This document shows positions 1-40,403 of a stretch of 40,403 nucleotides of DNA, piece by piece. The DNA comes from Eubacteriales bacterium (GTDB taxonomy: Bacteria > Bacillota > Clostridia > Oscillospirales > CAG-272): contig JBJDZF010000378.1 of NCBI GenBank assembly GCA_051867855.1, forward strand, positions 1-40,403. The letters are read 5' to 3'. Positions within the stretch are counted from its first letter, which is position 1. The number at the start of each line of letters is the position of its first letter. The position numbers and the translations under genes were made by a program. The notes under the pieces are model-generated. The model was not told where the DNA came from. It ran no database searches and saw only the letters and a list, made by a program, of their open reading frames with translations.

Positions 1-1244
1 CGCAGATCATGGATCATGTCCGCTGTCAGCTCCGTCGTATTCGCAGGTATATCAATATATCCGATCACGATATCGTAATACGATTCGTTCCGTACAGGAA
101 GTGTTTCGCTCTCACTCGATGTGATCAACTCTTCCGTTCCTGTCTTCATAACCTTTAGATACGGCAATGCTTTTCCTGTCGACCTGTCAAGCCGGATAAA
201 ATATGCGCGCCGCTGATCGCTTTCAGATGTCGATATCCCGTTTCCGACCTCATATTTGTTTTCGTATAAGGTTCCGTATACAAGCGCCTTGCCCTTTTTG
301 ATATAGATTTTCATTCCGGAAACATATATCCCGTAAGGATCTTCGTATTCCTGATTTTTCGGAATGCCGGAAACGGAATTGATAATGCCTATATTGTACT
401 GTGCAACAAGTTTCTCCGCATCTGTTTTATCCAGTGTTTCATTGTACCGAACGGTGCTTTCGTCTGTTTCAATGATTCGCATGACATAGCTTTTCGTAAC
501 AAACGGATCGGTTTCCTCTTGTTCTCCGATAGCTTCAATTGAAAGATATTCAATGGTTTCTCCCTTTTCACCGTCCTTTCCGTTATAAACGGAGTAATCA
601 TATGTCGTTCCGTCGGTTAAGAATATTCTGTAAATGCTTTCCCCGCCGGATTCCGTGCTCTGCGAAACAGGCTCGATACGCTCGATTCCGTTTCCGTCCG
701 CACCAGGTTCTCCGTCAGCACCGGCCTTTCCGTCCATGCCGTTGAAAACACGCAGATCAAAAATCTGACCGTTTGTGAGAATGACATGATATACGTTTTC
801 GAATCCGCTCATCTCTGCGGTAATATACGGCTCAACCGCCTGTACACCGACTCCAGGCGATCCGTCAAACTGTCCCTCTCTTGCCGCGCGTTCCAGCGCG
901 TTCATGCGCAGAAGAAGCGCTTTCCAGCTTCCGAGTTCCTCGTGCCCGAATGCGTAATTCTCCGGCTTTGCGCGCGGTATAATGCGGAATCGGTAGGTCG
1001 ATATCGTCCTGTTTCCGTCCTTTTCCTCCGCAATACAGGAAATGTTGAGATAACCGGCTTCCGTGAGAAGCGCATCCGGAACCGCAGCGCGGAATACGGA
1101 ACCGGCCTTCTGAACCTTTACGTTTCTGGATACCTTTTTATCGCTCCTCGATACGTCTATGGAATCGCATCCCTCGTCGATCAGCACATAAATTCCTTTA
1201 TCCCATTGGGTAAAGCTTTTCCTTCCGTCCTCAATAACTATCAT
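1..1244 (-). CDS. Tail fibre protein with collagen-like repeats (start present, 3' end runs off the window start)
   Basis: Not in the ORF track because there is no stop in the window. Own translation from ATG 1244 (ATGA overlap with the upstream stop) is open to position 1: MIVIEDGRKSFTQWDKG...ELTADMIHDL. Two G-X-Y runs (GMDGKAGADGEPGADGNG at 687-740; GKDGEKGET), each after a Y.I.LT.G....V.NG module as in phage fibres. Confidence 0.65.
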   Translation of the reverse strand, partial: MIVIEDGRKSFTQWDKGIYVLIDEGCDSIDVSRSDKKVSRNVKVQKAGSVFRAAVPDALLTEAGYLNISCIAEEKDGNRTISTYRFRIIPRAKPENYAFGHEELGSWKALLLRMNALERAAREGQFDGSPGVGVQAVEPYITAEMSGFENVYHVILTNGQIFDLRVFNGMDGKAGADGEPGADGNGIERIEPVSQSTESGGESIYRIFLTDGTTYDYSVYNGKDGEKGETIEYLSIEAIGEQEETDPFVTKSYVMRIIETDESTVRYNETLDKTDAEKLVAQYNIGIINSVSGIPKNQEYEDPYGIYVSGMKIYIKKGKALVYGTLYENKYEVGNGISTSESDQRRAYFIRLDRSTGKALPYLKVMKTGTEELITSSESETLPVRNESYYDIVIGYIDIPANTTELTADMIHDL

Positions 1245-21031: not shown

Positions 21032-21049
21032 AAATTATGGGTGATAATT

Positions 21050-21654: not shown

Positions 21655-21680
21655 ATGTTTTGAAGTAAGGAGGTGGTTAT

Positions 21681-22076: not shown

Positions 22077-22089
22077 TTCTTCCGAAGGC

Positions 22090-22134: not shown

Positions 22135-22142
22135 TCATTTCT

Positions 22143-22274: not shown

Positions 22275-22319
22275 CTGTTTTTCCTCCTATGTTTAAGAAC
22301 GTTTGTTCTTTTTTCTAAT

Positions 22320-22348
22320 ATTATACCATAGGAAAACGGTTTTGTCAA
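22320..22348 (-). promoter_or_regulatory. Perfect consensus promoter P4
   Basis: Minus strand reads TTGACA (22343-22348), 17 nt, TGgTATAAT (22320-22328). The -35 overlaps the stop of the upstream ORF. Confidence 0.85.
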
Positions 22349-22809
22349 CGCATATTTTGCTTTAAGTTTCTGATTCTGTTTTCAAGCTCCTGATTTTCTT
22401 CTTCAAGTACAGCGATTTCGATTTCTTTTTCTTTGCATCTTTTCTTCAGTTCGAATATGTATGTACTGACGATTTTTGCGTTTTCAATGCCGCTGCTTTG
22501 GATTTCAAGGTCGATGCTGCAGTGATCTTCCTGAAGCTTCTTGATTTCGTTTTCCTTCATGATTTCCCTGACACGGTCATGTACGGAATTTATCGTCCGA
22601 TTCATTTCTATTCCGTGTCTTTCGATCATGGATTTCTTTTCCTTTTCGTGCTCTTTTGCTTCTCTGATTTTCTCAAAATATAAATCTTCGTTTTCCTTTT
22701 TCAGTTTCAGCACCTCTTCTCTTTTATCGAAATAAAGCACGAAGAAAACGACAGCTGTTATAATGAGTATAATGATTACCGAATACATGAATCCAACCAA
22801 CTCTGACAT
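22345..22809 (-). CDS. N-terminally anchored coiled-coil membrane protein (154 aa)
   Basis: Start at ATG 22809 (AAAGGAG SD). TM helix FMYSVIIILIITAVVFFVLYF, then a Lys/Glu-rich heptad-like sequence. Very AT-rich. Confidence 0.7.
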   Translation of the reverse strand: MSELVGFMYSVIIILIITAVVFFVLYFDKREEVLKLKKENEDLYFEKIREAKEHEKEKKSMIERHGIEMNRTINSVHDRVREIMKENEIKKLQEDHCSIDLEIQSSGIENAKIVSTYIFELKKRCKEKEIEIAVLEEENQELENRIRNLKQNMR

Positions 22810-22830
22810 GATATCACTCCTTTCACTACT

Positions 22831-22859
22831 ATTATACATCATTTTTTATTGTTTTTCAA
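22831..22859 (-). promoter_or_regulatory. Near-consensus promoter
   Basis: Minus strand reads TTGAAA (22854-22859), 17 nt, TATAAT (22831-22836). Confidence 0.7.
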
Positions 22860-22867
22860 TTATTCTG

Positions 22868-22896
22868 TTGATTTTTGTTCCGGATTATGATATAAT
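22868..22896 (+). promoter_or_regulatory. Near-consensus promoter, back-to-back with 22831-22859
   Basis: TTGATT (22868-22873), 17 nt, TGaTATAAT (22888-22896). Confidence 0.75.
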
Positions 22897-22920
22897 TCAA
22901 TATAAAAGAGGTGTATTGAA

Positions 22921-23430
22921 ATGATTGAAGAAATGGATTTTTCCGATTTTGTTATTACGATCTGTTATGCTTGTCAGGTAGCCTCATTGATCTGTATCTA
23001 TAGATACTACGATTACAGAGAAATCAATGAATATTATCATATGAAAGCAAGAAATAAGGTAACGCACAGCTTCTTGAAAAACCTTTTTGCGATTTATTTC
23101 ATCCAACACCTGATAGGATTTATATTATATTTCATTGCTTATTGGTATATTTTCACCGATTTCATTATCATGATACCGCTTGGCTTAATGTGCTTTACAA
23201 TTTCCGTATTGCTTCGCTTGATGAACAAAAAAAAGAATTTCGGTTTTGGATTATCTCTCATTTTATTTTTTATCTTATTTTTGCCTATGTCATATCTCTC
23301 GCTTCGGTATTGCGATAAGTTCACGGATTATTGTACAGAATCCTTTTATTCATGTTTTTGTTTATATATTTTACCAATGTATGGGGTTTTATTTATCGAT
23401 TATAATACATATCTTGATAAAACCGAATAA
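22921..23430 (+). CDS. Polytopic membrane protein (about 5 TM helices, 169 aa)
   Basis: AAGAGGTG SD. Aromatic/Cys-rich hydrophobic segments. Very AT-rich. No recognisable family. Confidence 0.75.
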   Translation: MIEEMDFSDFVITICYACQVASLICIYRYYDYREINEYYHMKARNKVTHSFLKNLFAIYFIQHLIGFILYFIAYWYIFTDFIIMIPLGLMCFTISVLLRLMNKKKNFGFGLSLILFFILFLPMSYLSLRYCDKFTDYCTESFYSCFCLYILPMYGVLFIDYNTYLDKTE

Positions 23431-23612
23431 ACCCTTATTATAATTCATTTATATATTATCATATTTCCAGGAATTTTTCAATAACCAATTAAGACGGAAA
23501 CGGAACCGCTTATTATTTTTCCGATACCATCCGTTCCGAAAAGTCGGAAACGGTCGAAGTCTGTAAGACGATTTCCTGTTTCCGTGTCTTATTTCTATAC
23601 AGTATTTATAAT

Positions 23613-23645
23613 GAAAAAGAGACAGTTTCCGGTCTCTTTTTTTAT
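23613..23645. terminator. Bidirectional terminator
   Basis: AAAGAGAC-agtttccg-GTCTCTTT (23616-23623 / 23632-23639) with A5 before and T-run after. Confidence 0.7.
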
Positions 23646-24310
23646 TTTCCGAAGATCCACATCTTCCGTTTCTTTTTTTCCGGCTCCTTGGTTTCCGCGG
23701 CTTCTATCCGCATGATATCGTTTGCGTGTAAGGCCTGTGCGCCCTTCGTGCTGTCCATTGCATCTGACAGCGCCTGCGTCAGGTTTGCATTCTGTGATAG
23801 CAATGATTTGATCTGCTCGTCTTTTTCCTCAATCTGCCGTTTCAGAAACGCGCACGTTCCGCGAAGCTCTTCCTCCGAAACCGACAGGATCCGTATTGTT
23901 TCGGTTGCAGCCGAAAGTTTCAGCTTCATCGCTTCGGTTTCACGCTCCATTTCCGCCATGAAACCTGAAATTCCTCGGTTTCCGCTGACAACTTTTTCAC
24001 CTTCGGTTTCACCTGTTTTTTCTTCTTCTGACAACCCGGAAAAAGTTTCCCCCGTTCCGGTTTCAGAATTGGCCCCGTCATATCCGGTTTTTTCGGTTTC
24101 ATCTATGGTTTCAGTGGAAACCGGTTTCACCTCTTTTTTTCTCTTTTTTTCATCGTTTTCCGAAACCAATATTTTCTCCGCTTCTTCTGTCAGGTAGATG
24201 GTCTTATCCTCCGCCGTGAAAAAGGTTTCACGCGGAAGTTTCAGCACGCGCTTATAAAGCGCCTGTCTGGATATCCCCATTTCACCCGCAAGCTGCCGTA
24301 TCGTTTTCAT
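23642..24310 (-). CDS. HTH protein translationally coupled to rep (plasmid replication-associated, DUF536-like arrangement)
   Basis: 222 aa. MKTIRQLAGEMGISRQALYKRVLKLP HTH, acidic Thr/Glu-rich linker, C-terminal coiled coil. ATGA overlap with rep. Confidence 0.55.
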   Translation of the reverse strand: MKTIRQLAGEMGISRQALYKRVLKLPRETFFTAEDKTIYLTEEAEKILVSENDEKKRKKEVKPVSTETIDETEKTGYDGANSETGTGETFSGLSEEEKTGETEGEKVVSGNRGISGFMAEMERETEAMKLKLSAATETIRILSVSEEELRGTCAFLKRQIEEKDEQIKSLLSQNANLTQALSDAMDSTKGAQALHANDIMRIEAAETKEPEKKKRKMWIFGK

Positions 24311-27213: not shown

Positions 27214-27528
27214 TTATTTGTAATCTGTCAGAATCGGAAGAACCTCACACCCCTCCCATGCCTGCTGCAGCTTCTTGATTCCTCTTGCCTTATGTTTTGC
27301 GACATAATCCCGTCTGTATCCGAGCGCCTCCGCCGCTTCCTCCTCCGTCATACCATCAATGATCACGCATCTGATGCATGTTTCCTCGGACTTTGACAGA
27401 GACACATATGTAAACGCGAAATCAAGCACGCGTTTATACGGCGTTTTCAGTGCCCGCACGACCGTTTCACGGGGCAGCACGCTGTCGCCTCCTCCCGTAT
27501 TTCCGTATCCGTTCGTTTTGTACGGCAA
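27214..27528 (-). CDS. Sigma-70 region-4-like small regulator
   Basis: 104 aa. EETCIRCVIIDGMTEEEAAEALGYRRDYVAKHKARGIKKLQQAW is region-4/LuxR-type. The start is uncertain because the track ORF overlaps the upstream gene by 62 nt. Confidence 0.5.
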   Translation of the reverse strand: MPYKTNGYGNTGGGDSVLPRETVVRALKTPYKRVLDFAFTYVSLSKSEETCIRCVIIDGMTEEEAAEALGYRRDYVAKHKARGIKKLQQAWEGCEVLPILTDYK

Positions 27529-27792: not shown

Positions 27793-30700
27793 TCAGATTC
27801 CTATCTTTTTCAGTCCTATGCTTCCTATCCCGATGCTCGGAACGGAGAAGGAACTTTTCGATATCTTCTGCGCCTTGTATGGATTTGACGACTGACTGCC
27901 GCCCGTTGCGATCCATAGCGCGCTTGCCTGTCCCTTTCCGAGCAGCAGACGATTGATTGCGCTTTCCCGCTCCTCGTTTGATATATAGCCGTCCTGGTTT
28001 GTATCGGCGTTATTGAGCACCCATAGATAGATATCTACGTCAACACCTGCGTCGATTGCTGTATGATACCTCTCATATGCGCCGTCCGTAAGAACGGTTT
28101 TTATGGCGGTATCCAGTGTCTTCCCGGAAAGCGTCGTTTCCCATATCGCGGCGATCTTATCCGCGCTCGATTTCGCTCCCATCAGCGCATCGGTCACGGC
28201 AACGGCTGATTGTGCGTCAAGCCCGTTTGCGATGAGTTTCTTATACGTTTTCGGGTCGACTGTAAAACCTGTCGCAAACGGGAACGTATCTCCGATCTGC
28301 ATGATTCTGTCATCGCTGTATCCCATCTCCGAAAGCCATGCAAGGAACCGCGTTGACCGCTGCGCCGCCGTAATGCTGTCGTCTGCGTTCAGTCTAGCGT
28401 TTTCCGATCTGATTTTCAGAAATTCCTTGTAAGTCATGCCGTAACCGAGTATCGCGTTCACTTTGTCATCGTCGGTATAACCGATGAAGTTTCCGTCGTC
28501 ATCTGTTTCCTTGGTTGCGATCATGCCCTCGTAGACAGCCCGCATTGCGTCTGCATCCATATCGGTTGCAAGCAACAGATCTATTTTTTCAAAATTCCTG
28601 TCCGCCTCCCGTATATTCCGGACGGTATTGACCGCCTCCGCATAATCAGCTCCAGCCTCGACAGCGCTGTCGACTGTATTTTTCTGTCTGTCCGTAGCGA
28701 CGTATTCATAATAAAGCTCTGCTTTTTGCTCATCATCAAGCTCCGTTAATCCGTCTATGTACGCGGCCTGTGCAATGGCTAGCGTTTCGTTTTCTCTTTT
28801 CTCCACATCCGAAATACCGACCGCGATCTCGTATGCCGTTGACGGCTTAACTCCCGCATCCGTCAGTGCCTGATAGGCTTCCGTCTGCTTTTTTTTCAGC
28901 GTATCGAAATTCTGATTGACCCATTTCTGCTGTGAAAGCGTTCCGGACTTACCGAACAGCAGCGCACGGACGGTATCTGCTCCCGTCACGGTGTATTTCA
29001 GCTGTCCCTGCTTATAACCGTCCGTATAGTCTCCCGCCTGAAGAATAGAAAGCACGCCGTTCAGTGTCTTTCGTAACTGATTGCCTCCGGTCACAGTAAC
29101 GGACATAATGTCAAGCGCCTGCTGCATCAGATGGTAGAAAAGCTGCGCTTCCTCGTCCTTCTGTGCCGCCTCGATCTGGGCAATCATCTCCGGATCAGTC
29201 TCTTTCCTTTTATCCTTGGCAAGAGAATCGATTGCCGAAATATCGCCTCCTGCTTTTATCGCGTTAGAAACGCTCGGAAGGTTCACGGGAAGTCTTGAAT
29301 CTACGTCAGCTCCGAATGCACGTGCTGCGGCTAAAATGGAAGAACCGAACGGTACATCGTCGATAAATTCCGATACGGTTTTCCCATACGATTTTGCGCC
29401 TGCTACGATCGCTTCCAGAAGTGTCATGTCGTTTTCCTCGTCCTCATCACGGTCTCGGACGAACTTCTTGATGACGTTTACTAAGATTCCGTTCAGAACG
29501 CCGGATGCTCCCGTTATGAAATTGCCGAACAGAAGGCCTAAGATATCGAACATGGAGACCGTTCCGAGACCGAGCGCCGAAAAAATGTTGTTTGCAATCC
29601 ATGCGGCTGCCGCCTGACTTGCCGCAAACTTTGCAATCGTTTCCGCGGCCGCTTTCTTCCCTTTCGTCTGTTCGATCCGCTTCCACTCCTCCGGAAGCGT
29701 TTTCGAGATATTCTCCCACTGTGCAAGCGTTTCACGCTGGAACAGCGTCATAAGCTGTATGATAACGTTTTTCGACCGGAAAACAAGAGGTGATGCGCCG
29801 CGCAGTCTGGATGCAAGAATCGATCGTGCCTTGCTGTCTGCATACCGCATTGCTTCCGCTTCGTTCATTCCGTTATCGATTCCCTGCTGAAAGAATGAAT
29901 AGACAGCGAATTTTGACATGAAGATATCCGTCTGTTCCCATGTTTTTTCCGCAAGGTCGACCGCTATGTCTGCGGCTTTTACAATCCGCTCTGACCCTGA
30001 CGCCGCAATGTCCTTTTCGTAAGTTGTGCGCTGCATTTTCGTTTTCTCTGCAAGAAACGTCGACTTTTCAGAAATCCGATACCGCTGCTCCAGATCGTTG
30101 TTCGGATTGAATACAAGCATAGGCGCCGAAAACGCATGCTTTCCCGTTTCCGCTATGACATTCGGAATCTGGGAAAGCTGCCGGAGCGAGGATGCAACAT
30201 TGAACGTCATCATGGTACGGTTCGACCACCTGATCAGTGCGCCTGCCTTTCGCAGTGTGGTTCTCCCGATTGTGTTTTCCTGATCGCGTGACAGAATCTG
30301 CTTTCCGGCGAGATCGTCGGTGTAATTCTTCAGCCATGTGACAAGAGGACCGTAATCCTGTGATGCTTCCCTTAACTGTCTGTCCTTTTCGTTAATGGAT
30401 ATTGCATCCTCTCCCGTATCCGTCAGATCATCCAGCATATCCGCGCGTCTGTCCTGTGATGCTTTATCGAATTTGTCTCGGATATAGCTTTCAAGAGTTC
30501 GCAGCTTCATGATATCGTCGATATGGTATATGGCTTCGTTTGCCGCGTACAGATACCGCTCCATATTGGCGGCAGCATCATATACGGTTTCCGTTCCCAT
30601 TCTGCGCTGTGCAAAGGAAAGCCATTTTCTAAACGGTCTGAAATCAGCCGTCAAACCCGCAATGGACGCCGGAAGGTCAGTCACTTCGTCAAATCCTGCC

Positions 30701-33700
30701 GTTTTCATGATCTGTTCCCATGCGTTCATCGCTTTTTCCGGCTGCCTGTGCGGCATATAGTTTTTCCGGAAACGGATTTCGCCGCGTCCGTGAATGACGG
30801 ACACCTCATTGATTGCGTCATAGAGATCGTTGAGCATGTCTCTGTAGTCCTTCGCCGCCGCTTCCGCCTTCCGAATGACCGCATCGACGGAATAATTCTT
30901 TTTTTTCTTTGCGTTCAGAACGGCATTTGAAGCAATGGATTGCAGCGTGGATCTAAGTGAAACATATGCCTCCTCGTCATTTGCTTTCCTGATCCGTTCT
31001 GCTTTTGCGATTTTTCTGTAATCCTTTGCCTGCTCGTCGAGTGTTTTCCTCTCGAATTCCTTTTCCCGAATCGCACTTTCCAGAGCATTTTTCCTCTGTT
31101 TAGCGGATTCGCGCCACACTTCGTAATATTCGTTTCCTTCAGGATCGTATTTCGGACTTCCGTTGTGCTGCTCCTGATAGGATTTTCTGGTTGTTTTATT
31201 CAGTTCCTTGGTTGTTTCTTCAAGGGATTTCCGCATCCGAGCAATTTCACGGTCAACGCGTTTAACCGCTTCCTCGCTTCTTTTTGCGCGCAATTCGTCA
31301 AGCAGCTCTGTTCCGTCCGATTTCGAAACGGCGGAAATAATCTCCTCTACCGCTCCTTCCTCCCCTCTCATAAGGGCGGTAAGCATATCCCGTGTAACAA
31401 CAGGCTTTTCTTCTCCGTTATCCAAAGCATATTCCGCGACGATCTGCGCAAGTGCGCTTTCGGTTTTCGTCAGCTTATGCTTCATGATGCGTTCCATCTG
31501 TCTGTTAGTCTGCCGTCTCGCGGATGCGGAGTTATCTATGACCGGTTTGATAAAGGTATCGGTCAGCTCCCGTGCAAGCTCCGTATCGCCGAAAAACCGT
31601 GTCATGACGTTTTCAGGATTGGAAAGATTCAGTTCAAGCGTTTTCGATCCCTTTGTCTTTATGGAATCCCATTTGAAATCCGAAAATATCTGATCGAGAT
31701 TTGTTTTAATCGTGTTCAAGACGGACTTATTGCTGCCTCTGATTCCCGCCATCATCATTGTGTCAAGATCGCGGTGCATCTTTGCGAGCATTGATATGTG
31801 GTTATAAAATTCGCTTTTCTGGTCTGTTTCTTCGAGTTTGTATTTCCCTCTTGCAATTGCTAATGCCTTCGTATCGATTTCCTCGGGTATACCGAACTGC
31901 TTGATATACTGATTGATCCGTTTCCGGATATCTTCCGCTGCGTGATTCGCGTCTATGATTCCCTTTGCATCAAAGTAATTATCCGCGACGGCGCCTGATA
32001 TCCGATATCCGAGCTTTCTCATGGCAGTCTTGGCATTAAGAGCTTCCCGTCTGCGCATTTCGTAATTCTGTGTAAGAATCCGTTTCGCTTCCTCCGGTGT
32101 CTTTCCTTCCGCGATCAGCGCGGAATAAACGCCGGCTTCCTCTGCATCGGTTGGACCCGGTATTCCGGTTTCGGAACCGTTTCCCGTTTCGGTTTCAAAA
32201 AGACGCGGATTCTCCCATTCGGAAAGCGCGTTGTCAAGAGCGTTCTGCCTCTCCGGGTCAGCTGTTTTGTTCCCTCCCTCCTTTTTCATTGTCTCCATCA
32301 CGGATCCGGTTACGTCCCGTCTCAACCCGAACTCGTCTTTGATTCGGTTGACGGCAGCCCCTTTGATTGCGTTGAAAGCGCGCTGCTTGTCCCCGTATTC
32401 CTTATAAAGGCTGTAGTACATATCCCGTTCGGTTTCCGTTGCGTTTTTCGGAAGCTCGCCAGTTACGGATGCATAATCCTCGTTATTCCTGATATCGTCC
32501 GAAACCGTCTCGTCCATGTTTTCCGGAATCCCGGCATTTTCCTTGTACTCCTCTGAAAACGCCTGCATTTCCGCCTGTCGCTTGACGTTCCGTTTTTCCC
32601 GTTCTGCCGATTTCTGCTGCTCCCGATATCCTGCCATCGTTTTCGGTTTGGTTCTTTTTACATTCGGAATAGTGTTTTCAGCACCTGTGTCGTCAACCTC
32701 TCCTTTTGTTTCCATCATAGGTACAACATCCGACAATCTCCGTCTTTCCTGTTTTTCGATTACGTTTCCGTTTTCGTCAACCTCGATTTCGTCAAGCGGG
32801 TTTTTCTCCTTCTCCTCACGCACATCCTCATCAATCGAATATTGCGCATCCTCTCTGTATGCAAACTGCTTTTCTCCGAGCGCCTTTGCGTAAAGGTTCC
32901 GCGCATCTGTGATGAATTTCCGTTCCTTTGCCGCCTTGTTTCCGAGCTTCGCAAGAATGCTATCCAAAAAAGATCGGATTTTCTGACCGATGGATCTGTT
33001 TTCGTGCACAAGGGATGTGATGCTCTGCTCGTCCGTGAGCAGATTTTTCGAAACATATTCGGCTGTTACCTCCGCCCGTATCTGTGCGGCTGTTCTCCCG
33101 TATATTTTTCCGTCTGCATACAGATTCTGGTTGCGCCGCATGATCGTTTCATATGTACCGTCTGCTTTCATTTTCCGGAGTATCATGGTTTCGAGTTGGC
33201 TGTATTCCTCCGAATCACCGATTGCATGTGTCAGCTCATGGGATAGAATCTGCGCGGTTGCCGTATCTGACTTAGCGTTTACATAAATTACTCCGTCCCT
33301 GTAATACCCGTTTTCCATGATGCCCTCTCCGCCCGGTGCCGTATAGAACCGAACCGGAATCCCGATTGCATCAGAAATGTTTTTCGCTGTCTGTATGGAA
33401 TCCTCGTTTGCGCCGTTCTCGCGCCCTGTGCGCTCCGTTTCCGTGTCGATCTGGTTTGTTTTCGTTTTTTTGTTTTCCGCGCGCTGTGCGGTCTCAGTGA
33501 CGTCGGTTTCGCCTCTCTTATACATCTCCGCGCGTTCCCGGATCGTATCGAGCAGCTCCGCGCTTCTGTTTCTGATGTCCTCCGTTGTTGCAGTCTTTGC
33601 GTTAATAGTCGTACCGTCCCCAAGCTTTTCCGAAACGCGGTTCAGTGTTTCCGCCGCCGCTCGGATGTCGGCCGGATTCATATTTTCGGCAAACGCGTTG

Positions 33701-35151
33701 ATTGCATAAACGTTATCGCTTACACCCTTTGTCGCGGGCGATACCGCATCCGCAACCGCCACGACGGTTCCGAATGCACCCATCAGTCCACCGACGAGAG
33801 CGCCCGACACGCCGGATCGTATCATTTCCGACGTATCGAAAATGCCGTCGTCACCGAACCATTTTTTATCCGGCTCGAATGTCAGCTTATCGACGATGCC
33901 GGAAAGCGGTACGTTGACGACCTCCTCGGCGCCCTCTTCGGCCATATTGAACGCCGCTTTCATAAGCGTCTTGACAAGCGTCATCGCCGTCGAGCCTGTC
34001 CTTGAATCCAGAACGCCTGCAACCGACGCAATGTCCGTAAAACCGCCTAGATTTTCCGTGAACCCTTCTACGAATGCGTTTCCGGCCGAATTGATGAAAT
34101 TTTCAAGGATTCGTTTTTCGTCTCCGTAATCCTTCTGGTTTTCGAAAAACGTATTCCCGAATGTGTTTCCCATGAGAATCGCCTCGTGCGGAAGGCTTTT
34201 TACCGCGTTGACAACGCCGTCCGCAATCGACTTCGAGACTGTTTTCAGATTCAGATTCCCGGCCTTGTATGCCGCCTGTATGCCTTTCTGCGCGGTGTCG
34301 ACAAGCGTTTTCGGCTCTCCGAGCGGAAGCGCCTTCATTATCACCATATTCGGAATGTTCTGCCCGATCTGAAACGCGGCTTCTCCGAGCAGGAATTTTT
34401 CTGCTGTATTCAGATCGTTTTCGTTCGCCCACGCTTCCGCGTTCTGTCTCTCAAAGGTCGGAAGCTCAAGCTTTTTGTATGCCCGTACCGTTTCCTGTGG
34501 TACGCCTGCCGATTCGGCTATTTTCATGACGGCGCGGTCTTCATCGTAGGATGCGGACAGAAAAAGTGTATTCCTCTCGTTTTCGTTTTCGGACAGATAC
34601 CGCTCAATCCGGTTGATCTCCTCTCCGCGTTTACCTCCCGTTCCGATATCCGCAAGTGCGTTTTCGATACCGTATGCGTAAGATGTTGCGCCGGACAGGA
34701 AACCCGCCCCGGCATTCTGCATAAAATAGAGCCCTCTGTTTTTCTCCGTCTGATTGATTTCCGGAAGCGGTGCCTTTGACGTCGGAACAGACTGCCCCGG
34801 AGCGATATCCGGTATGTTTCCCTCTCGCTCTGTATACGCCTTGACAGCGGAACGCATCTGCTGCTGTTCCGCCTGTTTCCGTATATCCGATATCCGTCTG
34901 TCGGTTATGTTTTTTCCGATTTCGCCGTCCTGTTTGTACATGCCGCCATGTCCGCTTTCGTTTCCTGTTGATAAAGCGGATCTGTTTTTCTCCGCAATCA
35001 GATCGGACGCATCGCTTTGTAAAAGCCCCATGCTCTCAAGGCGTTTTCTGATCGCTTCGTTTTCCTCAAACGTCGGAAGAACGACAGGCGTTACTCTATT
35101 TTCGCTTTCTTTTTTTTCGTACAGTCCGATATCTGATAGTTTGAGTGCCAT
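27793..35151 (-). CDS. Giant (2452 aa) polyvalent / ejection- or tape-measure-like virion protein with a zincin motif
   Basis: Uninterrupted ORF, AGGAG SD. HELTH at 33226-33240 in the context YRDGVIYVNAKSDTATAQILSHELTHAIG. Gly-rich hydrophobic helix clusters (for example aa ~1835-1897, nt 29461-29649). Canonical EF-hand loop DTNQDGYISNEE at 27970-28005. Confidence 0.8.
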   Translation of the reverse strand: MALKLSDIGLYEKKESENRVTPVVLPTFEENEAIRKRLESMGLLQSDASDLIAEKNRSALSTGNESGHGGMYKQDGEIGKNITDRRISDIRKQAEQQQMRSAVKAYTEREGNIPDIAPGQSVPTSKAPLPEINQTEKNRGLYFMQNAGAGFLSGATSYAYGIENALADIGTGGKRGEEINRIERYLSENENERNTLFLSASYDEDRAVMKIAESAGVPQETVRAYKKLELPTFERQNAEAWANENDLNTAEKFLLGEAAFQIGQNIPNMVIMKALPLGEPKTLVDTAQKGIQAAYKAGNLNLKTVSKSIADGVVNAVKSLPHEAILMGNTFGNTFFENQKDYGDEKRILENFINSAGNAFVEGFTENLGGFTDIASVAGVLDSRTGSTAMTLVKTLMKAAFNMAEEGAEEVVNVPLSGIVDKLTFEPDKKWFGDDGIFDTSEMIRSGVSGALVGGLMGAFGTVVAVADAVSPATKGVSDNVYAINAFAENMNPADIRAAAETLNRVSEKLGDGTTINAKTATTEDIRNRSAELLDTIRERAEMYKRGETDVTETAQRAENKKTKTNQIDTETERTGRENGANEDSIQTAKNISDAIGIPVRFYTAPGGEGIMENGYYRDGVIYVNAKSDTATAQILSHELTHAIGDSEEYSQLETMILRKMKADGTYETIMRRNQNLYADGKIYGRTAAQIRAEVTAEYVSKNLLTDEQSITSLVHENRSIGQKIRSFLDSILAKLGNKAAKERKFITDARNLYAKALGEKQFAYREDAQYSIDEDVREEKEKNPLDEIEVDENGNVIEKQERRRLSDVVPMMETKGEVDDTGAENTIPNVKRTKPKTMAGYREQQKSAEREKRNVKRQAEMQAFSEEYKENAGIPENMDETVSDDIRNNEDYASVTGELPKNATETERDMYYSLYKEYGDKQRAFNAIKGAAVNRIKDEFGLRRDVTGSVMETMKKEGGNKTADPERQNALDNALSEWENPRLFETETGNGSETGIPGPTDAEEAGVYSALIAEGKTPEEAKRILTQNYEMRRREALNAKTAMRKLGYRISGAVADNYFDAKGIIDANHAAEDIRKRINQYIKQFGIPEEIDTKALAIARGKYKLEETDQKSEFYNHISMLAKMHRDLDTMMMAGIRGSNKSVLNTIKTNLDQIFSDFKWDSIKTKGSKTLELNLSNPENVMTRFFGDTELARELTDTFIKPVIDNSASARRQTNRQMERIMKHKLTKTESALAQIVAEYALDNGEEKPVVTRDMLTALMRGEEGAVEEIISAVSKSDGTELLDELRAKRSEEAVKRVDREIARMRKSLEETTKELNKTTRKSYQEQHNGSPKYDPEGNEYYEVWRESAKQRKNALESAIREKEFERKTLDEQAKDYRKIAKAERIRKANDEEAYVSLRSTLQSIASNAVLNAKKKKNYSVDAVIRKAEAAAKDYRDMLNDLYDAINEVSVIHGRGEIRFRKNYMPHRQPEKAMNAWEQIMKTAGFDEVTDLPASIAGLTADFRPFRKWLSFAQRRMGTETVYDAAANMERYLYAANEAIYHIDDIMKLRTLESYIRDKFDKASQDRRADMLDDLTDTGEDAISINEKDRQLREASQDYGPLVTWLKNYTDDLAGKQILSRDQENTIGRTTLRKAGALIRWSNRTMMTFNVASSLRQLSQIPNVIAETGKHAFSAPMLVFNPNNDLEQRYRISEKSTFLAEKTKMQRTTYEKDIAASGSERIVKAADIAVDLAEKTWEQTDIFMSKFAVYSFFQQGIDNGMNEAEAMRYADSKARSILASRLRGASPLVFRSKNVIIQLMTLFQRETLAQWENISKTLPEEWKRIEQTKGKKAAAETIAKFAASQAAAAWIANNIFSALGLGTVSMFDILGLLFGNFITGASGVLNGILVNVIKKFVRDRDEDEENDMTLLEAIVAGAKSYGKTVSEFIDDVPFGSSILAAARAFGADVDSRLPVNLPSVSNAIKAGGDISAIDSLAKDKRKETDPEMIAQIEAAQKDEEAQLFYHLMQQALDIMSVTVTGGNQLRKTLNGVLSILQAGDYTDGYKQGQLKYTVTGADTVRALLFGKSGTLSQQKWVNQNFDTLKKKQTEAYQALTDAGVKPSTAYEIAVGISDVEKRENETLAIAQAAYIDGLTELDDEQKAELYYEYVATDRQKNTVDSAVEAGADYAEAVNTVRNIREADRNFEKIDLLLATDMDADAMRAVYEGMIATKETDDDGNFIGYTDDDKVNAILGYGMTYKEFLKIRSENARLNADDSITAAQRSTRFLAWLSEMGYSDDRIMQIGDTFPFATGFTVDPKTYKKLIANGLDAQSAVAVTDALMGAKSSADKIAAIWETTLSGKTLDTAIKTVLTDGAYERYHTAIDAGVDVDIYLWVLNNADTNQDGYISNEERESAINRLLLGKGQASALWIATGGSQSSNPYKAQKISKSSFSVPSIGIGSIGLKKIGI

Positions 35152-35164
35152 ATGATTCTCCTAA

Positions 35165-36331
35165 TCATGAATGTATCGTATTCATATATTTTTCAAGAAC
35201 ATATTTTTCTGTTCCGGTAAGGTCTTCTCCTCTTCTTTGCTTTTCAATGATATCGGTTACATTTATTTCTCCGTTATTTATCTTATTTAATTCTTCAAGC
35301 ATTTGTTCTTCTCTTGTCAATTTGCTTTGATTATCAGATTCCTCATCAATCTGCGCCTTGATAGCCGTCGTATCGATTCCGAGCGCTTCAAGCCCTGCAT
35401 AATCTCCGTATTCCGCTCCGGCTATTGCAAGCTGATATGCAAGCGTATCGACGAACTGCTTTGCATCGTTCGACAGCGCCGCGTACTTGTAAGCCGTTTC
35501 GGAATCCGCCTGCCGTCCGCTTTCAATCAAACTTGCGTACTTATAGGCAAGCTCCGCAGCCGACTGACGCTCCTCCGCGTCGAGCGCTTTCAGCTGATAT
35601 TCCATGTTCGCCTTCTGCTGCGCCTCGTACCATTCGTTTTCAAGCTTCTGCTGTGTCAGTGCAAGATCATCCTGCCGTTTCTGATAATCGTAATTCAGCT
35701 CATCGATATACCGCGTGTACGCATCGTTTTCAAGATTGCGCGCCTGTCCGAGAAGATCACTCTGACGGCTGTATTCCGACAGGAACTGTTCGTATGCCTG
35801 CTGATACAGTTCCGGATACTTATCCGCCAGCTGCTGCGCGTAATAGTTGCTTGCCTGCTGTGCGGCCGCCGCCGCATATGAGGAAGCAATTCCGCCCGTA
35901 TTCTGTGCCAGTGCTCCGAGCGTGTCCTTCGCCGCGCGTTCTCCCTCTCTTCGGTATGCTTCTGTATAATATTTCGTGTTCGGGTCCGTGTTCGGATCAT
36001 ACGAAAAGGATTTCTGCATGTTCTGCAAATAGGAATCAATGAGATCGTCATACTGCTGCTGATAGGTCTTGTCCGGCTCCGTCAGCGCAAACGAACCGCC
36101 GGAATCACCGCCGGAATAACCGCCGTACTGCTTGCGGATCGATTCTGCACCTGCATGCGCAAAAGCTTTTGCGGAATCATTCGTCGCCGTGTTCCAGTCG
36201 TTCTTGTACGTGAGAAGCGATATGCCCGCATCCGGATTGCTCTGTGCAAGCTGCTCGTCCGCATCAGAGATGCTTCCGTCATCAAATCCGTATTCGCTTT
36301 TTTTCTTCAGATAGTCGTCATACGTATACAT
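35165..36331 (-). CDS. Virion-associated protein of unknown role (388 aa)
   Basis: Q/Y/A-rich with long helical segments. Lies between the 549-aa protein and the giant protein. Confidence 0.55.
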   Translation of the reverse strand: MYTYDDYLKKKSEYGFDDGSISDADEQLAQSNPDAGISLLTYKNDWNTATNDSAKAFAHAGAESIRKQYGGYSGGDSGGSFALTEPDKTYQQQYDDLIDSYLQNMQKSFSYDPNTDPNTKYYTEAYRREGERAAKDTLGALAQNTGGIASSYAAAAAQQASNYYAQQLADKYPELYQQAYEQFLSEYSRQSDLLGQARNLENDAYTRYIDELNYDYQKRQDDLALTQQKLENEWYEAQQKANMEYQLKALDAEERQSAAELAYKYASLIESGRQADSETAYKYAALSNDAKQFVDTLAYQLAIAGAEYGDYAGLEALGIDTTAIKAQIDEESDNQSKLTREEQMLEELNKINNGEINVTDIIEKQRRGEDLTGTEKYVLEKYMNTIHS

Positions 36332-37967
36332 TTCTGTCCCCTTCCGGCTTTTCTCCGGCCGTTCTCGCGTCGCGGATCAACGCATATATAATGATGTTCC
36401 CGCATCCCTCCGCGCGGATGCGCATATTGTCATACCGGACGGAAGGAAGCGGATAGATACCAGTAATGACGCGTCCGTCCGTATCGATGATCCGACCGAC
36501 CTCCGTGAAAGCGCCGCCGTCAAACGAAACGAGAACGGAACCTGACGTTCCTTCCTCGGATTCATACCGCATCATAAGACGGTTCGCGTGCTTTCTTTCT
36601 ACGGTTCCGTCGTTAATGTCGTTCGTCTCAAGGTACCAGTTTACCGTTTTTTCGGTCTCCCCTGTTTCGTATTCCGGTACATCTCCGATCTCAAACAGAT
36701 TTCCTTCATCGTCGATACACACAAGGCTGATTCCGTCCATACCGATATACTGTGCGCGCGTGTCGTCCTCCCTGATCCAGACGGAACGTGCGATATCGAA
36801 GCAGAAAAGAGACGTTCTTTCCCCGTCCGTACAGGATATGTAATAATATACCCCGTCCGAACCGGAAACGCCGTTTTTGATCATCCTCTCTCCGAGCGGC
36901 CTTGATATGATTTCCGGAACCCCGCCCGTATAGGCACAGATTCCTGCTTTTGAAAGATAAAAGAGATATGCTCCAGCGGCGCAAAGGCTCTTATGCTCGC
37001 CACTCCGTACGCCGAGTGCGCTTGATCTGACATATGCAAAATCCGAAGGCGTATCTCCGTATATCTTGTAAATTGCGTTTTCCGTGAAAAATACGGGCAT
37101 CCCGTTGAAATCGACACATGCCGTTATGCTGTCGCCGCTCCCGGTTGTCGCCGCCCATGAGGATGTCGAAAGCACGTCATAGTCCATCCATACATCCCCC
37201 TGACCGAGCGCCGATGCGTATATTTCTCGTCCCTTCGCGCCCCACAGACGATTGTCGGAAGCAAAAACAAAATCCATGTCCGGAACAGGATAACGGATAG
37301 ATGCATAAATGTCTATATATGATGTCGAATAGTTTCCGTATATATCCTTGAGTGCATAGTCCGAAAAGAAAATATACCATCCGTCGTTGTATCCTGGATA
37401 ATTCGCATTATCCAACCGGACGATATTGAGTATGCTTGCCGTAACCTTCGTTGCTCCGGCTTTTACTTCTACAATGTCTCCCTTTTTGAAAAGCGGTTCG
37501 ACATAATTCTGATGAATACAGTTATAGTAGCCTGACACGCCTGTTGTCGGGTCTTCTTCACTGTATTCAAATCTGAATGTTCTGGTTGAGGAACTGTCCG
37601 TAAAATCGATTGTTGCATCGTCAAGATCGCGCAGTGTCTTTTTCTTTGTATCGTATATGATTTTGTCTGGGTAAATATAGAGGATGTCCCCAAGCACGCA
37701 CATGTTCTTTTCCCCGTCGTCCACCCGGCATACTTCCGTGTAGTCGTCGTAAAAAATATTATCCGCAATGTGATAGATCCGATCCCCGAAATAGATCCCC
37801 TGCAGATTGTCATACCCGTACCCGTAATATCTGCGCTTCCCGCGTGCAGCCATTGCGGGAAGGAACCGCGCGGACATGTTCTGCATATCCGCGCACGCTC
37901 CGTCACCGGCTGCGCGCCTTGCGTCATATCCGCCGAATGATGTATTCCCGGTATAACCGCGCGCCAT
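36318..37967 (-). CDS. Beta-rich tail/nozzle-like structural protein (549 aa)
   Basis: Repeated beta-strand-type segments (NRLWGAKGREIYAS, MPVFFTENAIYKIYG, AYLFYLSKAGICAYTG, VYYYISCTDG) suggest a propeller-like fold. Position supports a tail component. Confidence 0.5.
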   Translation of the reverse strand: MARGYTGNTSFGGYDARRAAGDGACADMQNMSARFLPAMAARGKRRYYGYGYDNLQGIYFGDRIYHIADNIFYDDYTEVCRVDDGEKNMCVLGDILYIYPDKIIYDTKKKTLRDLDDATIDFTDSSSTRTFRFEYSEEDPTTGVSGYYNCIHQNYVEPLFKKGDIVEVKAGATKVTASILNIVRLDNANYPGYNDGWYIFFSDYALKDIYGNYSTSYIDIYASIRYPVPDMDFVFASDNRLWGAKGREIYASALGQGDVWMDYDVLSTSSWAATTGSGDSITACVDFNGMPVFFTENAIYKIYGDTPSDFAYVRSSALGVRSGEHKSLCAAGAYLFYLSKAGICAYTGGVPEIISRPLGERMIKNGVSGSDGVYYYISCTDGERTSLFCFDIARSVWIREDDTRAQYIGMDGISLVCIDDEGNLFEIGDVPEYETGETEKTVNWYLETNDINDGTVERKHANRLMMRYESEEGTSGSVLVSFDGGAFTEVGRIIDTDGRVITGIYPLPSVRYDNMRIRAEGCGNIIIYALIRDARTAGEKPEGDRNVYV

Positions 37968-37970: not shown

Positions 37971-38159
37971 CTATCCCTCCTTGTCCGCTGAAATGCGCTT
38001 GATTTCATATCCGATCTGCTCCTTCAGCCTGACGATATAATCGCGCATTTCCTTGTTCTGCTGATACAGTGCGGATATTTTCTGTTCCTCTGTCATGTCA
38101 GTGAGATCGGGAATGGACGGAAGTCCTTCATTCGTCCGAAGCAAATCCGTATATGCCAT
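37971..38159 (-). CDS. Hypothetical 62-aa protein
   Basis: Start moved to ATG 38159, 1 nt after the lysin stop. Confidence 0.5.
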   Translation of the reverse strand: MAYTDLLRTNEGLPSIPDLTDMTEEQKISALYQQNKEMRDYIVRLKEQIGYEIKRISADKEG

Positions 38160-38160
38160 A

Positions 38161-38988
38161 TCACATACCGGAAATATGCTGCATAATGCGTTTGAGCACA
38201 ACACAGAACTGTTCTCTTGTGATAGGGTCTTTCGGCATCAGGTTCCCGTTTTCGTCGCCCTTGATGAATCCCATTTTCACAGCCCAGTCCATCGCGTCCT
38301 TTGCCCATTCTGAAACAATTTCGTTCTTTTCCATGTCTGTCTTCTCCTCTTCATTCTTTTGTTCTACAGCTTCCGCCTGTTCGGTTTTTTCCTGGATTTC
38401 ATAGTTTGCGTCTACATATCCGCCGATCCCGTCGACGGCTTCCGATCCCCATTGCCAGATACGGATATTCGGATAATCCGTTTTGGACGGAACATACTTT
38501 TTATCCCTCCACAACGCAAGCCACAGCGGCCACACGCTGATATCCCCGATCCTGTTCTTCAGAAAGTCTGGATTGGTATACACCATCGGTGTATATCCGG
38601 CGCTCTGCACGCGTTTGCAGAACGCGTTGATAATCATAGTAAGCATGCTTTTATCATCGGGAAGATATTTCGATTCCACGTCCACGGCTGCGTACAGGCT
38701 CACAGCGCTCTTGTAAGGAGTTATGGCTGATAGATAATAGTCCGCTTCTTCAATCGCTTCTGTGACCGTCTGTGCGGTCAGAAAATGGTATACGCCTATA
38801 CGGATTCCGCTTTTCTGCGCGCCGATCATATTCCTGATAAAAAAGCTGTCCGTGAACAGGCGCAGAGATGCATTCTGTTCGCTCCGTCCCTGTGTTGCCT
38901 TGATCATGGCAAAATCTACACCGGATGCCCGTACCTTTTCCCAATTGATGCCTGATTGGAACACCGATACGTCAATGCCGCGTTTCAT
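38161..38988 (-). CDS. Endolysin: GH25 muramidase with a C-terminal single SLH-like domain
   Basis: Real start is ATG 38988 (ATGA overlap with the holin stop). [33 protein letters not shown] is the GH25 signature. C-terminal [43 protein letters not shown] fits the SLH consensus. Confidence 0.9.
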
Positions 38989-39191
38989 TTGTCGTTCACC
39001 TCCGGCAGTCCTGCGACGGATGTCAGGATTGACAGAATCCCGGCAAGCACCGATGCGGAAGCGACCGCGATCCAGTTTACTTCGCCGAGCACGGCGGATG
39101 TTCCGATTGTTGCAATAGCCGTCTGCGCGACTGTTTTCAGCGCGCGGATTGCTGCAGCATAAAGCCATTCTTTTGTAAATACGTTTTTCAT
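38985..39191 (-). CDS. Holin (68 aa, two hydrophobic helices)
   Basis: Start at ATG 39191 (GGGAGG SD 7 nt upstream, ATGA overlap). [16 protein letters not shown]...[27 protein letters not shown], immediately upstream of the lysin. Confidence 0.65.
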
Positions 39192-39472
39192 GATAAGACC
39201 TCCCATGTGATAACCGTTTTTCTGATATCGTCGATAAAAGAGTTTCCGCCGAGCGCCTTGTAGGCCTTGTAATTAAGCTCGAAGTTCTGAAGCTCATACT
39301 GGCGGATGCTCTTTGTTTCTTTGTTTGTGTAGTAGGTATGCAGCATGTTCGTGCGCAAAAGGCACCGGAACGCCTCGATGATACAGTGTACCTTGTACAC
39401 GATTCCGATAATGAGCGTAACCCCTGCCGAAATTGCCGTTACATACCCGGCGATTGTTGCTATGTGATTCAT
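39188..39472 (-). CDS. N-terminally anchored lysis-cassette protein (94 aa)
   Basis: Start at ATG 39472 (AAAGAGGA SD). TM helix [20 protein letters not shown], then [12 protein letters not shown]...[19 protein letters not shown]. Confidence 0.6.
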
Positions 39473-39558
39473 TCGTCCTCTTTGTTGATAGAAAAAATAC
39501 AGATTGTAATAATTGTGATAACGGAACCGAATACGGTTCCCAATATAAACGCCGCCAT
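39469..39558 (-). CDS. 29-aa hydrophobic peptide heading the lysis cassette (below the track cutoff)
   Basis: GAGAGGG SD. Own translation [29 protein letters not shown]. The TGA stop overlaps the next ATG (ATGA). Confidence 0.4.
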   Translation of the reverse strand: MAAFILGTVFGSVITIITICIFSINKEDE

Positions 39559-39567
39559 GTTTCCCTC

Positions 39568-40104
39568 TCATATCGCCACAACAATAATTCCGATCTTCAA
39601 TCCTGCCGGATACATATACGATCCAGTATAACTTTTAATCGTAATATTGTTTTCGTCCGTTATAGTCGGTACATTACCAGTCGAAACACTGGACATCATA
39701 TAGGAACTTTCTCCGTCTGAAGAAGCATACCAATAACTCGAAAGTCTGATATTTTCTTTTAATGTTCCGTTATTACTTGTTTTTCCTGCAAATTGTGTCA
39801 GTATATAAACATTTGCAATATTGTCCTTATATACGAGCTTTTCAACGCAGTCTTCCGCAAGATACGCCGCCGCAAGCAGGATATCCGTCGATCCTAAATT
39901 GTGTGTAACCGGTATTTCCGAAGATTGTTCATCAAGCGTTACTTCTGTTGTATAAACCCTTGCACCAGACGAAATGCCGGACGATATCGACCGTATCGCA
40001 CCTGCAAATTCGGAAACCTTGTATGTATCCGTCAGCCCGTTCTTTTCCCGGATCGCGTCGGCTGCCGCCTGGATGTCGGACTCTTCATACAGTTTGTTCG
40101 CCAT
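39568..40104 (-). CDS. Fibre/receptor-binding-associated structural protein (178 aa)
   Basis: N-terminal LYEESDIQAAADAIREKNGLTDTYKVSEFAGAIRSI is a motif recurrent in gut Firmicutes phage fibre proteins. Confidence 0.45.
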   Translation of the reverse strand: MANKLYEESDIQAAADAIREKNGLTDTYKVSEFAGAIRSISSGISSGARVYTTEVTLDEQSSEIPVTHNLGSTDILLAAAYLAEDCVEKLVYKDNIANVYILTQFAGKTSNNGTLKENIRLSSYWYASSDGESSYMMSSVSTGNVPTITDENNITIKSYTGSYMYPAGLKIGIIVVAI

Positions 40105-40331: not shown

Positions 40332-40403
40332 TGTGATTCCCCCTTTTTCATGTAATCGGATTTTCTTCCATATACGCGTCAACCGCTGCGGAAAAGTCCA
40401 TCT

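Follow-up and report, generated by a model that had tools for sequence, protein, structure and literature searches.

A giant gene in a complete phage genome

The contig JBJDZF010000378.1 (assembly GCA_051867855.1, Eubacteriales bacterium), analyzed over its full length of 40,403 nucleotides (nt) and referred to here as the window, is a phage genome in which a single gene encodes a protein of 2,452 amino acids (aa), the giant protein that is the subject of this work. It is encoded by an uninterrupted open reading frame (ORF) with an ATG start on the reverse strand (27793-35151), with an AGGAG ribosome-binding site (RBS) 6 nt upstream of the ATG, and only 13 nt separate the stop codon of the preceding 388-aa gene from this start (all coordinates are collected in Table 1). 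Not a single Cys is found among its 2,452 residues. When the end of the window was joined to its start, an uninterrupted ORF of 422 aa with collagen-like G-x-x stretches appeared across the junction (1244..1 then 40403..40379, reverse strand), indicating that the window behaves as a complete circular genome, of which the giant gene takes up 7,359 of 40,403 nt (18.2%). The ORF check and the closure of the circle confirm the original prediction, made from the letters of this DNA, of an uninterrupted 7.4-kb ORF accounting for 18 percent of the genome, and the positions that it gave for the ORF, the HELTH motif, the hydrophobic clusters and the EF-hand-like loop were all correct.

A family defined by its C-terminal core

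A first search retrieved 50 homologs of 2,200 to 3,350 aa (E-values from 1e-14 to 0), many of them on contigs of 37 to 41 kb, and most of them carrying PF18760, PF18812, PF18814, PF18798, PF18838 or PF18819. Local mapping over 51 proteins revealed a modular architecture. While aa 1-560 and 800-1420 are conserved only in the closest relatives, the module with the HExxH motif (aa 609-761) is found in nearly all of the 51 proteins and the C-terminal repeats (aa 2170-2430) in 33 of them. The stretch of approximately 740 residues that lies before these repeats (aa 1425-2165), which we call the core, is present in 51/51.

An alignment of the core and C-terminus was then used for an exhaustive profile search against 1.84 billion representative proteins, with family clusters defined at 50% identity. 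This search found 5,358 clusters at an E-value of ≤1e-3 and 2,788 at ≤1e-30. The best 150 clusters have representatives of 969 to 3,891 aa, in which the core is located at or towards the C-terminal end. The HExxH module could be found in 101 of 146 new representatives (ca. 70%), and all 101 keep the motif. Cysteine is extremely scarce in the family (median content of 0.067%). Both the giant protein and the neighboring 388-aa protein have none, the neighboring 549-aa protein has 11, and the nonhomologous giant protein of phage phi24B (see below) has 2 in 2,807 aa.

Between the HExxH module and the core, the relatives have a slot occupied by ART-PolyVal, PBECR3, PBECR5, MuF_C, LPD3, LPD23, GNAT, SprT-like or DUF6782 domains, among which PBECR3, PBECR5 and MuF_C are RNases of the BECR fold. 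Several of these may be found together, as in P0040 (PBECR3, GNAT and ART) and P0042 (LPD23, SprT and ART). Domain scans found no effector domains in the giant protein and its three closest relatives, and the equivalent segment of the giant protein is highly charged, with 30 to 46 charged residues per 100.

The core has no model in Pfam (according to the precomputed domain lists of the homologs), PHROGs or NCBIfam. A tblastn search of 50,697 GenBank phage records, with the query and a more typical family core, found it only in MT835607.1, an uncultured fecal fragment. Deposited phages related to the window are also very few, and a search with its portal found only uncultured human-fecal fragments. 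The same type of search in 72,556 plasmids gave no match; together with the lack of any type IV secretion system (T4SS) gene among the window ORFs scanned, this led us to drop a plasmid or conjugative origin. In contrast, 73 loci were located in the GTDB species genomes, mostly in metagenome-assembled genomes (MAGs) of Oscillospiraceae, Butyricicoccaceae, Acutalibacteraceae and other Clostridia, and the cultured examples are prophages of Agathobaculum desmolans ATCC 43058 and Metabacillus kandeliae GX 13764.

In L082, and likewise in L083, which are independent metagenome contigs, the giant gene appears as two ORFs that overlap by 17 nt (3-2990 and 2974-5883 in L082), the second of which (969 aa) is in essence the core alone. 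This split version may be a frameshift or a genuine two-gene form. We had also considered free-standing "core-only" proteins of ca. 970 aa, but they follow an overlapping upstream ORF and are split genes.

A zincin-like HExxH module

HELTH (aa 638-642, nt 33226-33240) is the sole HExxH of the giant protein, a motif that arises in about 1% of its residue shuffles. It is kept in 51/51 proteins of the first homolog set, and H638, E639, H642 and a downstream glutamate, E694, are invariant in an alignment of the module from 22 diverse sequences. The AlphaFold model of aa 600-770 (predicted local distance difference test [pLDDT] of 81.7) shows three short strands (residues 2-4, 16-19 and 22-26 of the model, with a pLDDT of only 59 to 66), the helix with the HExxH (32-44), two more helices, and a helix bearing E694 (89-105, pLDDT of ca. 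90). This predicted order fits the metallopeptidase fold of polyvalent proteins, for which a three-stranded sheet, an HExxH helix, variable inserts and a helix with a Glu have been described (PMC5512222).

Many relatives carry a second, shorter copy of the module that Pfam recognizes above threshold as DUF6782 (putative metallopeptidase) or SprT-like, and hhalign aligned the two module types with a probability of 94.8% (E-value of 5e-8) over 42 columns that include the strands and the HExxH. When Pfam was run on the 22 module sequences, no family reached its threshold, and MPTase-PolyVal matched only one of them, at an E-value of 0.013. The subthreshold matches common to several module sequences were mostly zincin families (M48, M78, DUF6782, eCIS_core, M13, MPTase-PolyVal and SprT). 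The profile search of the PDB found no significant relative, only matches to the active-site helix of aureolysin and neprilysin-type proteins with E-values of 0.1 to 0.2. Foldseek against BFVD gave eight best matches with a probability of 1.0 and query TM-scores of 0.55 to 0.71; all eight are first segments of uncultured-phage proteins named for polyvalent-protein domains, and they confirm the recurrence of the module rather than its fold class. Taken together, these results make it very probable that the module represents a divergent, polyvalent-protein type of zincin, its fold class being backed by sequence logic and not by a structural match. The metallopeptidase context that had been proposed for HELTH is thus sustained by the conserved module, the invariant Glu and the predicted order of elements, although Foldseek against the PDB retrieved no solved zincin fold.

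Hydrophobic segments and the C-terminal end

Kyte-Doolittle values peak at ca. 1.8 in two places, aa 446-474 (nt 33730-33816) and aa 1855-1894, the latter matching a hydrophobic cluster previously noticed at nt 29461-29649. The first segment is common to the nearest relatives only. The second, located within the core, forms a double helix with abundant Gly and hydrophobic residues, and its equivalent in relatives is hydrophobic or amphipathic, with a Kyte-Doolittle value of 1.5 reached in roughly half of the 18 checked. It is plausible that these segments are membrane-active helices like those predicted in gp16 of T7 and P22, helical proteins that are soluble in the virion (PMC8954989), even if the prediction of transmembrane segments is not strong here. 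The model of aa 1400-2452 contains many short helices and no single long coiled coil, and a profile search of PDB sequences with the core and C-terminus found no significant relative.

Close to the C-terminus, with 58 residues following it, is the loop DTNQDGYISNEE (aa 2383-2394, nt 27970-28005), which satisfies the 12-position EF-hand consensus (D at position 1, D/N/S at 3 and 5, G at 6, a hydrophobic residue at 8 and E at 12). It had been described as a perfect canonical EF-hand loop; its coordinates and 12 positions are right, but it fails the 13-residue PROSITE pattern PS00018, having R at position 13, and the Pfam model EF-hand_5 scores it at 13.3 bits against a cutoff of 25.9. Taken by itself, the motif carries little weight, as one or more such 12-mers arise in 5.4% of the shuffles of the giant protein. 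Its position is another matter: of 197 family members, 100 have a relaxed version of the loop pattern within their last 200 aa (median distance to the C-terminus, 77 aa), versus 4 matches in the remaining 484,840 residues of the set. At the loop position the relatives read DADGNGTFKQAE, DADGNDSVSNAE, DANGNDSIDNEE and similar. The model of aa 1400-2452 shows the loop flanked by helices 973-982 and 993-1001, with a local pLDDT of ca. 85. It belongs to the final one of three or four helical repeats, and a conserved LW...NPY tail comes after it. There is no adjacent partner loop with which it could form a paired EF-hand, so that the loop is single. Position and conservation make the EF-hand-like loop real, and, judging from the family sequences, a loop resembling a Ca site appears as a fixed feature of the C-terminus. 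Far from being unusual in such a protein, as had been supposed, a loop of the Ca-binding type is in this family the rule.

The only other 12-mer of the protein that matches the EF-hand loop, DEDEENDMTLLE (aa 1902-1913, nt 29410-29445, reverse strand), is located just after the hydrophobic double helix and is conserved in relatives P0002 to P0004; it looks like an acidic linker rather than a Ca loop. The extreme C-terminus of the giant protein (aa 2427-2452, nt 27793-27870, reverse strand), SFSVPSIGIGSIGLKKIGI, is hydrophobic and basic. In relatives, this end has short repeated (M/L)P(K/E)I motifs or a conserved NPY motif, which suggests that the tail is functionally important.

A conserved three-gene block

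A gene of ca. 550 aa, another of ca. 310 to 490 aa and the giant gene follow each other in the same order in six further loci, namely, the close relative L001, the prophages L002 and L078 at the edge of host DNA, the Oscillospiraceae MAG L004, and the contigs L079 and L080 of ca. 40 kb. In L080, an SU10_adaptor protein (185 aa, Pfam) is followed by genes of 561 and 409 aa, the giant gene, and fiber-type genes (DUF859, Peptidase_S74). SU10_adaptor is a podovirus adaptor, and this order matches that of T7 (adaptor, nozzle, internal core and fiber). Pairwise BLASTP of the 178-, 549- and 388-aa proteins of the window against the genes at the same position in L080 gave no match, and because of this the correspondence between the neighbors in both genomes rests on order and size only. 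A homolog search with the 549-aa protein found no named or Pfam-annotated relative, and neither this protein nor the 388-aa one had a match in PDB sequence searches. The 549-aa protein matches phrog_511 ("internal virion protein"), while the giant protein matches no Pfam or PHROG family. Despite this label, we read the 549-aa protein as a likely nozzle.

Relation to described proteins

Phage polyvalent proteins (Iyer, Burroughs, Anand, de Souza and Aravind 2017, PMC5512222) are, like the giant protein, single giant polypeptides encoded among late genes, and the zincin-like HExxH...E module is the hub domain of the class. Direct homologs of the giant protein carry ART-PolyVal, PBECR3/5, LPD3, LPD23 and MuF_C. 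Since the relatives carry LPD23, LPD3 and other Pfam families of the class described in 2017, the giant protein is a new, effector-poor member of this known class. It differs in showing no recognizable effector domain other than the zincin-like module, in a zincin module that is unmatched by Pfam MPTase-PolyVal, and in belonging to a family defined by a C-terminal core of ca. 740 aa for which Pfam, NCBIfam and PHROGs have no model. Its designation as a polyvalent protein therefore stands by homology to relatives with polyvalent domains, although Pfam, PHROGs and NCBIfam scans recognized no effector domain in the giant protein itself besides the zincin-like module. As far as the databases searched show, the features not described before are the core, its size and restriction to uncultured phages of Clostridia, and the fixed Ca-type loop and Cys depletion.

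A close parallel is gp47 of the Stx phage phi24B, a polyvalent protein of ca. 2,800 aa for which mass spectrometry demonstrated presence in virions and an ejection role was proposed (bioRxiv 10.64898/2026.04.10.717836). It is a podovirus protein, encoded by the last gene (vb_24B_48, ca. 8.4 kb, 2,807 aa) after a 421-aa gene, almost free of Cys (2 residues), with HExxH motifs, and proposed to be packaged and ejected. However, it shows no detectable homology to the core, the zincin module or the C-terminal repeats, its host is Gram negative, and its domains are LPD1, LPD5, LPD38 and MuF-C. Among gut Clostridia, the prophages phi1 and phi4 of C. clostridioforme LM41 (ca. 41 kb) are predicted podoviruses with podovirus-like particles seen by transmission electron microscopy, and each has an ORF of ca. 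8 kb at its 3' end, almost 20% of the genome, with similarity to LPD3 (PMC11318856). These ORFs were noted in passing and left unanalyzed in that study, and we liken them to the giant gene by description only.

The ejection proteins of podoviruses (T7 gp14/15/16, P22 gp7/20/16, and N4 gp50 with gp51/52) are encoded by adjacent late genes beside tail genes, with the largest last, and are helical, soluble-looking and with predicted hydrophobic helices, all of which is shared by the giant protein and its block. The position between adaptor or nozzle and fiber genes (L080, L079), with no long-tail genes found, is also that of the T7 and P22 ejection genes. The N4 virion RNA polymerase (gp50) is likewise giant and carries a zincin-like domain, and it is ejected together with two other ejection proteins (PMC13434306). 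On the other hand, there is no sequence or fold match to any of them, the giant protein has neither a transglycosylase nor an RNA polymerase, and the likely host here is Gram positive, where such proteins have not been described (PMC8954989). Tape-measure proteins share with it the length, the helices, the Gly-rich hydrophobic segments and, sometimes, an embedded peptidase. They differ in that there is no family match, the neighbors are the wrong ones, the portal and adaptor context is of the podovirus type, and the enzyme cassettes are interchangeable.

Proposed role and alternatives

On balance, we favor the giant protein being a late virion-internal ejection (pilot) protein of the polyvalent kind in a short-tailed phage of gut Clostridia, a reading that seems to us somewhat better than even. 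It is built on the ORF and its conserved motifs, the modular architecture of the family, in which the core is always C-terminal, the Cys depletion, and the conserved gene block, where the giant gene lies on the same strand as the tail and nozzle-like genes and is coupled to them. We also counted in its favor the small and large terminase subunits, the P22-type portal, the head protein and the GH25 endolysin with an S-layer homology (SLH) domain. A short tail is supported indirectly, from gene content, by this portal, by the SU10-type adaptor in a relative and by the lack of detected long-tail genes. As had been noticed before, the window has no recognizable tail tube, sheath or separate tape-measure gene: none of these families, nor those of baseplate, chaperone, terminator or Dit/Tal proteins, matched the other sizeable ORFs of the structural region. 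Packaging, ejection, membrane engagement, protease activity and Ca binding are what we infer from these observations.

Under this proposal, the giant protein would be produced from a late operon together with the nozzle-like 549-aa and the Cys-free helical 388-aa proteins, packed into the capsid and, at infection, threaded unfolded through the portal and the tail channel. The core (aa 1425-2165) would be the obligatory delivery part, whose hydrophobic double helix may engage the cell wall and membrane and help to form or extend a conduit for the DNA, while the C-terminal helical repeats, with their single loop of the Ca-binding type and conserved tail, could serve in docking or refolding. The zincin-like module (H638, E639, H642 and E694) might cut its own polypeptide or a host target. 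The stretch from this module to the core would be a cargo slot, filled in relatives with putative toxin or anti-defense enzymes and in the window phage with only a charged segment. A more ambitious version, which we regard as possible but doubtful, is that the core and the repeats with their EF-hand-type loop make up an undescribed DNA-delivery (ejectosome) module with which short-tailed phages of Gram-positive gut Clostridia would cross S-layer, wall and membrane, in which Ca2+ would act as a folding or release switch and a plug-in slot would allow the coinjection of interchangeable toxins and anti-defense enzymes.

Several points weigh against an ejection protein. No isolated phage among the 50,697 GenBank records carries the core, which leaves the family with neither morphology nor virion proteomics to draw upon. 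Pfam and PHROGs detected no homology to the T7, P22 and N4 ejection proteins, and none was detected to the phi24B giant protein either. The core is poor in the AlphaFold model of aa 1400-2452 (pLDDT of 35 to 60), unlike the C-terminal repeats, which are good, and Foldseek searches of the PDB returned only noise, both with this low-confidence model and with that of the HExxH module (best E-value of 0.46). The helices that the original prediction called membrane type do exist as clusters, but they are moderately hydrophobic and not uniformly conserved, with a comparable core peak in only about half of the relatives checked. Finally, the lysis cassette of the window intervenes between the block and the other tail genes, and the 549-aa neighbor could be either a nozzle or an internal protein.

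These weaknesses leave room for other roles. A protein that is never packaged and acts inside the cell in host takeover or anti-defense, or a moron at the prophage end that lysogens express (to exclude superinfecting phages or as a toxin, for instance), would agree with the toxin-type domains of relatives (ART and BECR RNases) and with the prophages in which the giant gene is the last phage gene beside host genes, a frequent position for morons. In the window, moreover, the gene borders a regulatory and replication module (the 104-aa sigma/helix-turn-helix [HTH]-like ORF and Rep3 downstream). We nevertheless consider this unlikely. The gene shares its strand with the structural block, to which it is tightly coupled, in other relatives it is found amid the structural module, between nozzle-like and fiber genes, and the phi24B analog, likewise the last gene of its genome, was found in virions. 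The extreme Cys depletion and the invariable C-terminal core of ca. 740 aa would also be hard to explain in a cytoplasmic enzyme carrier. We give equally little credit to an external or tail-lumen part of the short tail (central fiber, plug, needle or wall-degrading tip) that stays with the particle, because the ART, RNase and acetyltransferase domains of relatives have cytoplasmic substrates, no receptor-binding, beta-helix or peptidoglycan-hydrolase family was detected by Pfam or PHROGs, separate fiber genes are present, and 2,200 to 3,900 aa is very large for a podovirus tail part. What speaks for such a component is that the gene adjoins nozzle-like and fiber-like genes, that the zincin module could act on the wall, and that the helical repeats with the Ca-site-like loop resemble Ca-stabilized modules, which are common in adhesion and tail proteins.

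The long, mostly helical nature of the giant protein, its Gly-rich hydrophobic stretches and its embedded peptidase-like module are found in some tape-measure proteins, and a long noncontractile tail could be imagined with tube and chaperone genes that have diverged beyond recognition. In L079 and L080, the giant gene is indeed followed by genes of 208 to 331 aa and 509 to 590 aa (DUF859, a "Siphovirus" family) that can be read as Dit/Tal-like. Still, we find this very improbable. No tape-measure, tube, terminator, chaperone or Dit/Tal family matched in the window; the genes upstream encode 549 and 388 aa instead of small frameshifted chaperones, and those downstream are small regulators and Rep3. 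The portal is of the P22 type, and the SU10 adaptor of a relative is that of a podovirus. Tape-measure length corresponds to ca. 1.5 Å per residue, and 2,200 to 3,900 aa would mean tails of 330 to 580 nm from genomes of 40 kb. The many short helices of the model in place of one long coiled coil, and enzyme cassettes that can be exchanged, also misfit a length ruler.

Other features of the phage genome

Further genes identified in the window phage are listed in Table 1. The 422-aa ORF that spans the junction has weak matches to tail-fiber and head-protein PHROGs. At its position, L001 (85% identical) has a BNR/sialidase-like protein of 1,130 aa, indicating that the receptor-binding gene has been swapped. 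The lysis cassette (37971-39571, reverse strand) consists of a membrane-helix ORF, an r1t-type holin-like ORF and the GH25 endolysin, and is placed amid the tail-gene region, between the fiber and 178-aa genes and the 549/388/2452 block, with an identical layout in L001. The SLH domain of the endolysin suggests that the host has an S-layer.

Two different replication-initiator-like genes (Rep3 and REP_ORF2-G2P) accompany an SSB gene. Neither integrase nor secretion-system genes were found among the window ORFs scanned; relatives carry tyrosine or serine recombinases. The window phage may be plasmid-like in its replication or strictly lytic. Adjoining the Rep3 gene, a region at ca. 21000-24000 with short ORFs in both orientations has a G+C content of 0.36 to 0.37, versus ca. 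0.50 elsewhere; it might be foreign DNA or else an origin or iteron region. One small ORF separates the giant gene from a downstream 104-aa ORF (27214-27528, reverse strand), which has matches to PHROGs of sigma factors and HTH regulators and marks where the late block gives way to genes for regulation and replication. A 121-aa ORF (10277-10642, forward strand) matches the N-terminal domain of ArdC (anti-restriction, single-stranded-DNA binding) with 22.7 bits, just above the Pfam cutoff of 22.6; it stands alone here, whereas in polyvalent proteins it is usually fused to a zincin module. Another ORF (16540-17433, reverse strand) encodes a 297-aa protein with a PAPS-reductase domain, and PAPS-reductase genes have also been reported in the LM41 prophages (PMC11318856).

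Table 1. Coordinates of the giant gene, its regions and other annotated genes of the window
Feature	Position (nt)	Strand	Remarks
Giant ORF	27793..35151	-	2452 aa, no Cys; RBS AGGAG at 35158-35162
N-terminal region, aa 94-556	33484..34872	-	Gly-rich with hydrophobic stretches; ~50% identity to nearest relatives P0005 and P0006 only
Zincin-like HExxH module, aa 609-761	32869..33327	-	H638/E639/H642 at 33226-33240; invariant E694 at 33070-33072
Variable middle, aa 762-1424	30880..32868	-	Highly charged; no known domain; conservation limited to closest relatives
Family-defining core, aa 1425-2165	28657..30879	-	Contains hydrophobic double helix aa 1855-1894 (29470-29589)
C-terminal helical repeats, aa 2084-2426	27874..28902	-	pLDDT 70-90; EF-hand-like loop in last repeat
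EF-hand-like loop DTNQDGYISNEE, aa 2383-2394	27970..28005	-	Between two predicted helices; conserved LW...NPY tail after
549-aa protein, gene 1 of three-gene block	36318..37967	-	Looks beta-rich, 11 Cys; phrog_511 "internal virion protein"
388-aa protein, gene 2 of three-gene block	35165..36331	-	Cys-free, Q-rich, looks helical
Small terminase (TerS)	9043-9621	-	
Large terminase (TerL)	7520-9046	-	
Portal, P22_portal / phrog_156	5412-7541	-	
Major head protein	2725-3729	-	
GH25 endolysin with SLH domain	38161-39297	-	
Rep3-type initiator (WH1+WH2, plasmid type)	24307-25395	-	
SSB	13023-13481	-	
Second Rep-like protein, REP_ORF2-G2P	13511-14377	-	

Implications

The passage of DNA from short-tailed phages across the thick Gram-positive envelope is poorly understood, and the uncharacterized core gives a concrete starting point for studying how such phages deliver their DNA into Gram-positive gut bacteria. 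The family is both abundant and unstudied: it comprises at least 2,788 clusters at 50% identity, mainly from Clostridia (Oscillospiraceae and others) that live in the guts of humans and animals. The invariant residues of the zincin-like module, the Ca-type loop fixed in position and the extreme Cys depletion are directly testable handles, and the giant protein of the window, being effector poor, makes a convenient minimal scaffold for study. If the core is the delivery part and the middle a cargo slot, the family would amount to a catalog of effectors injected against gut bacteria (among them ADP-ribosyltransferases, RNases and acetyltransferases). Were the ejectosome version to hold as well, it would represent a widespread injection platform, with thousands of 50%-identity clusters and no cultured phage representative.

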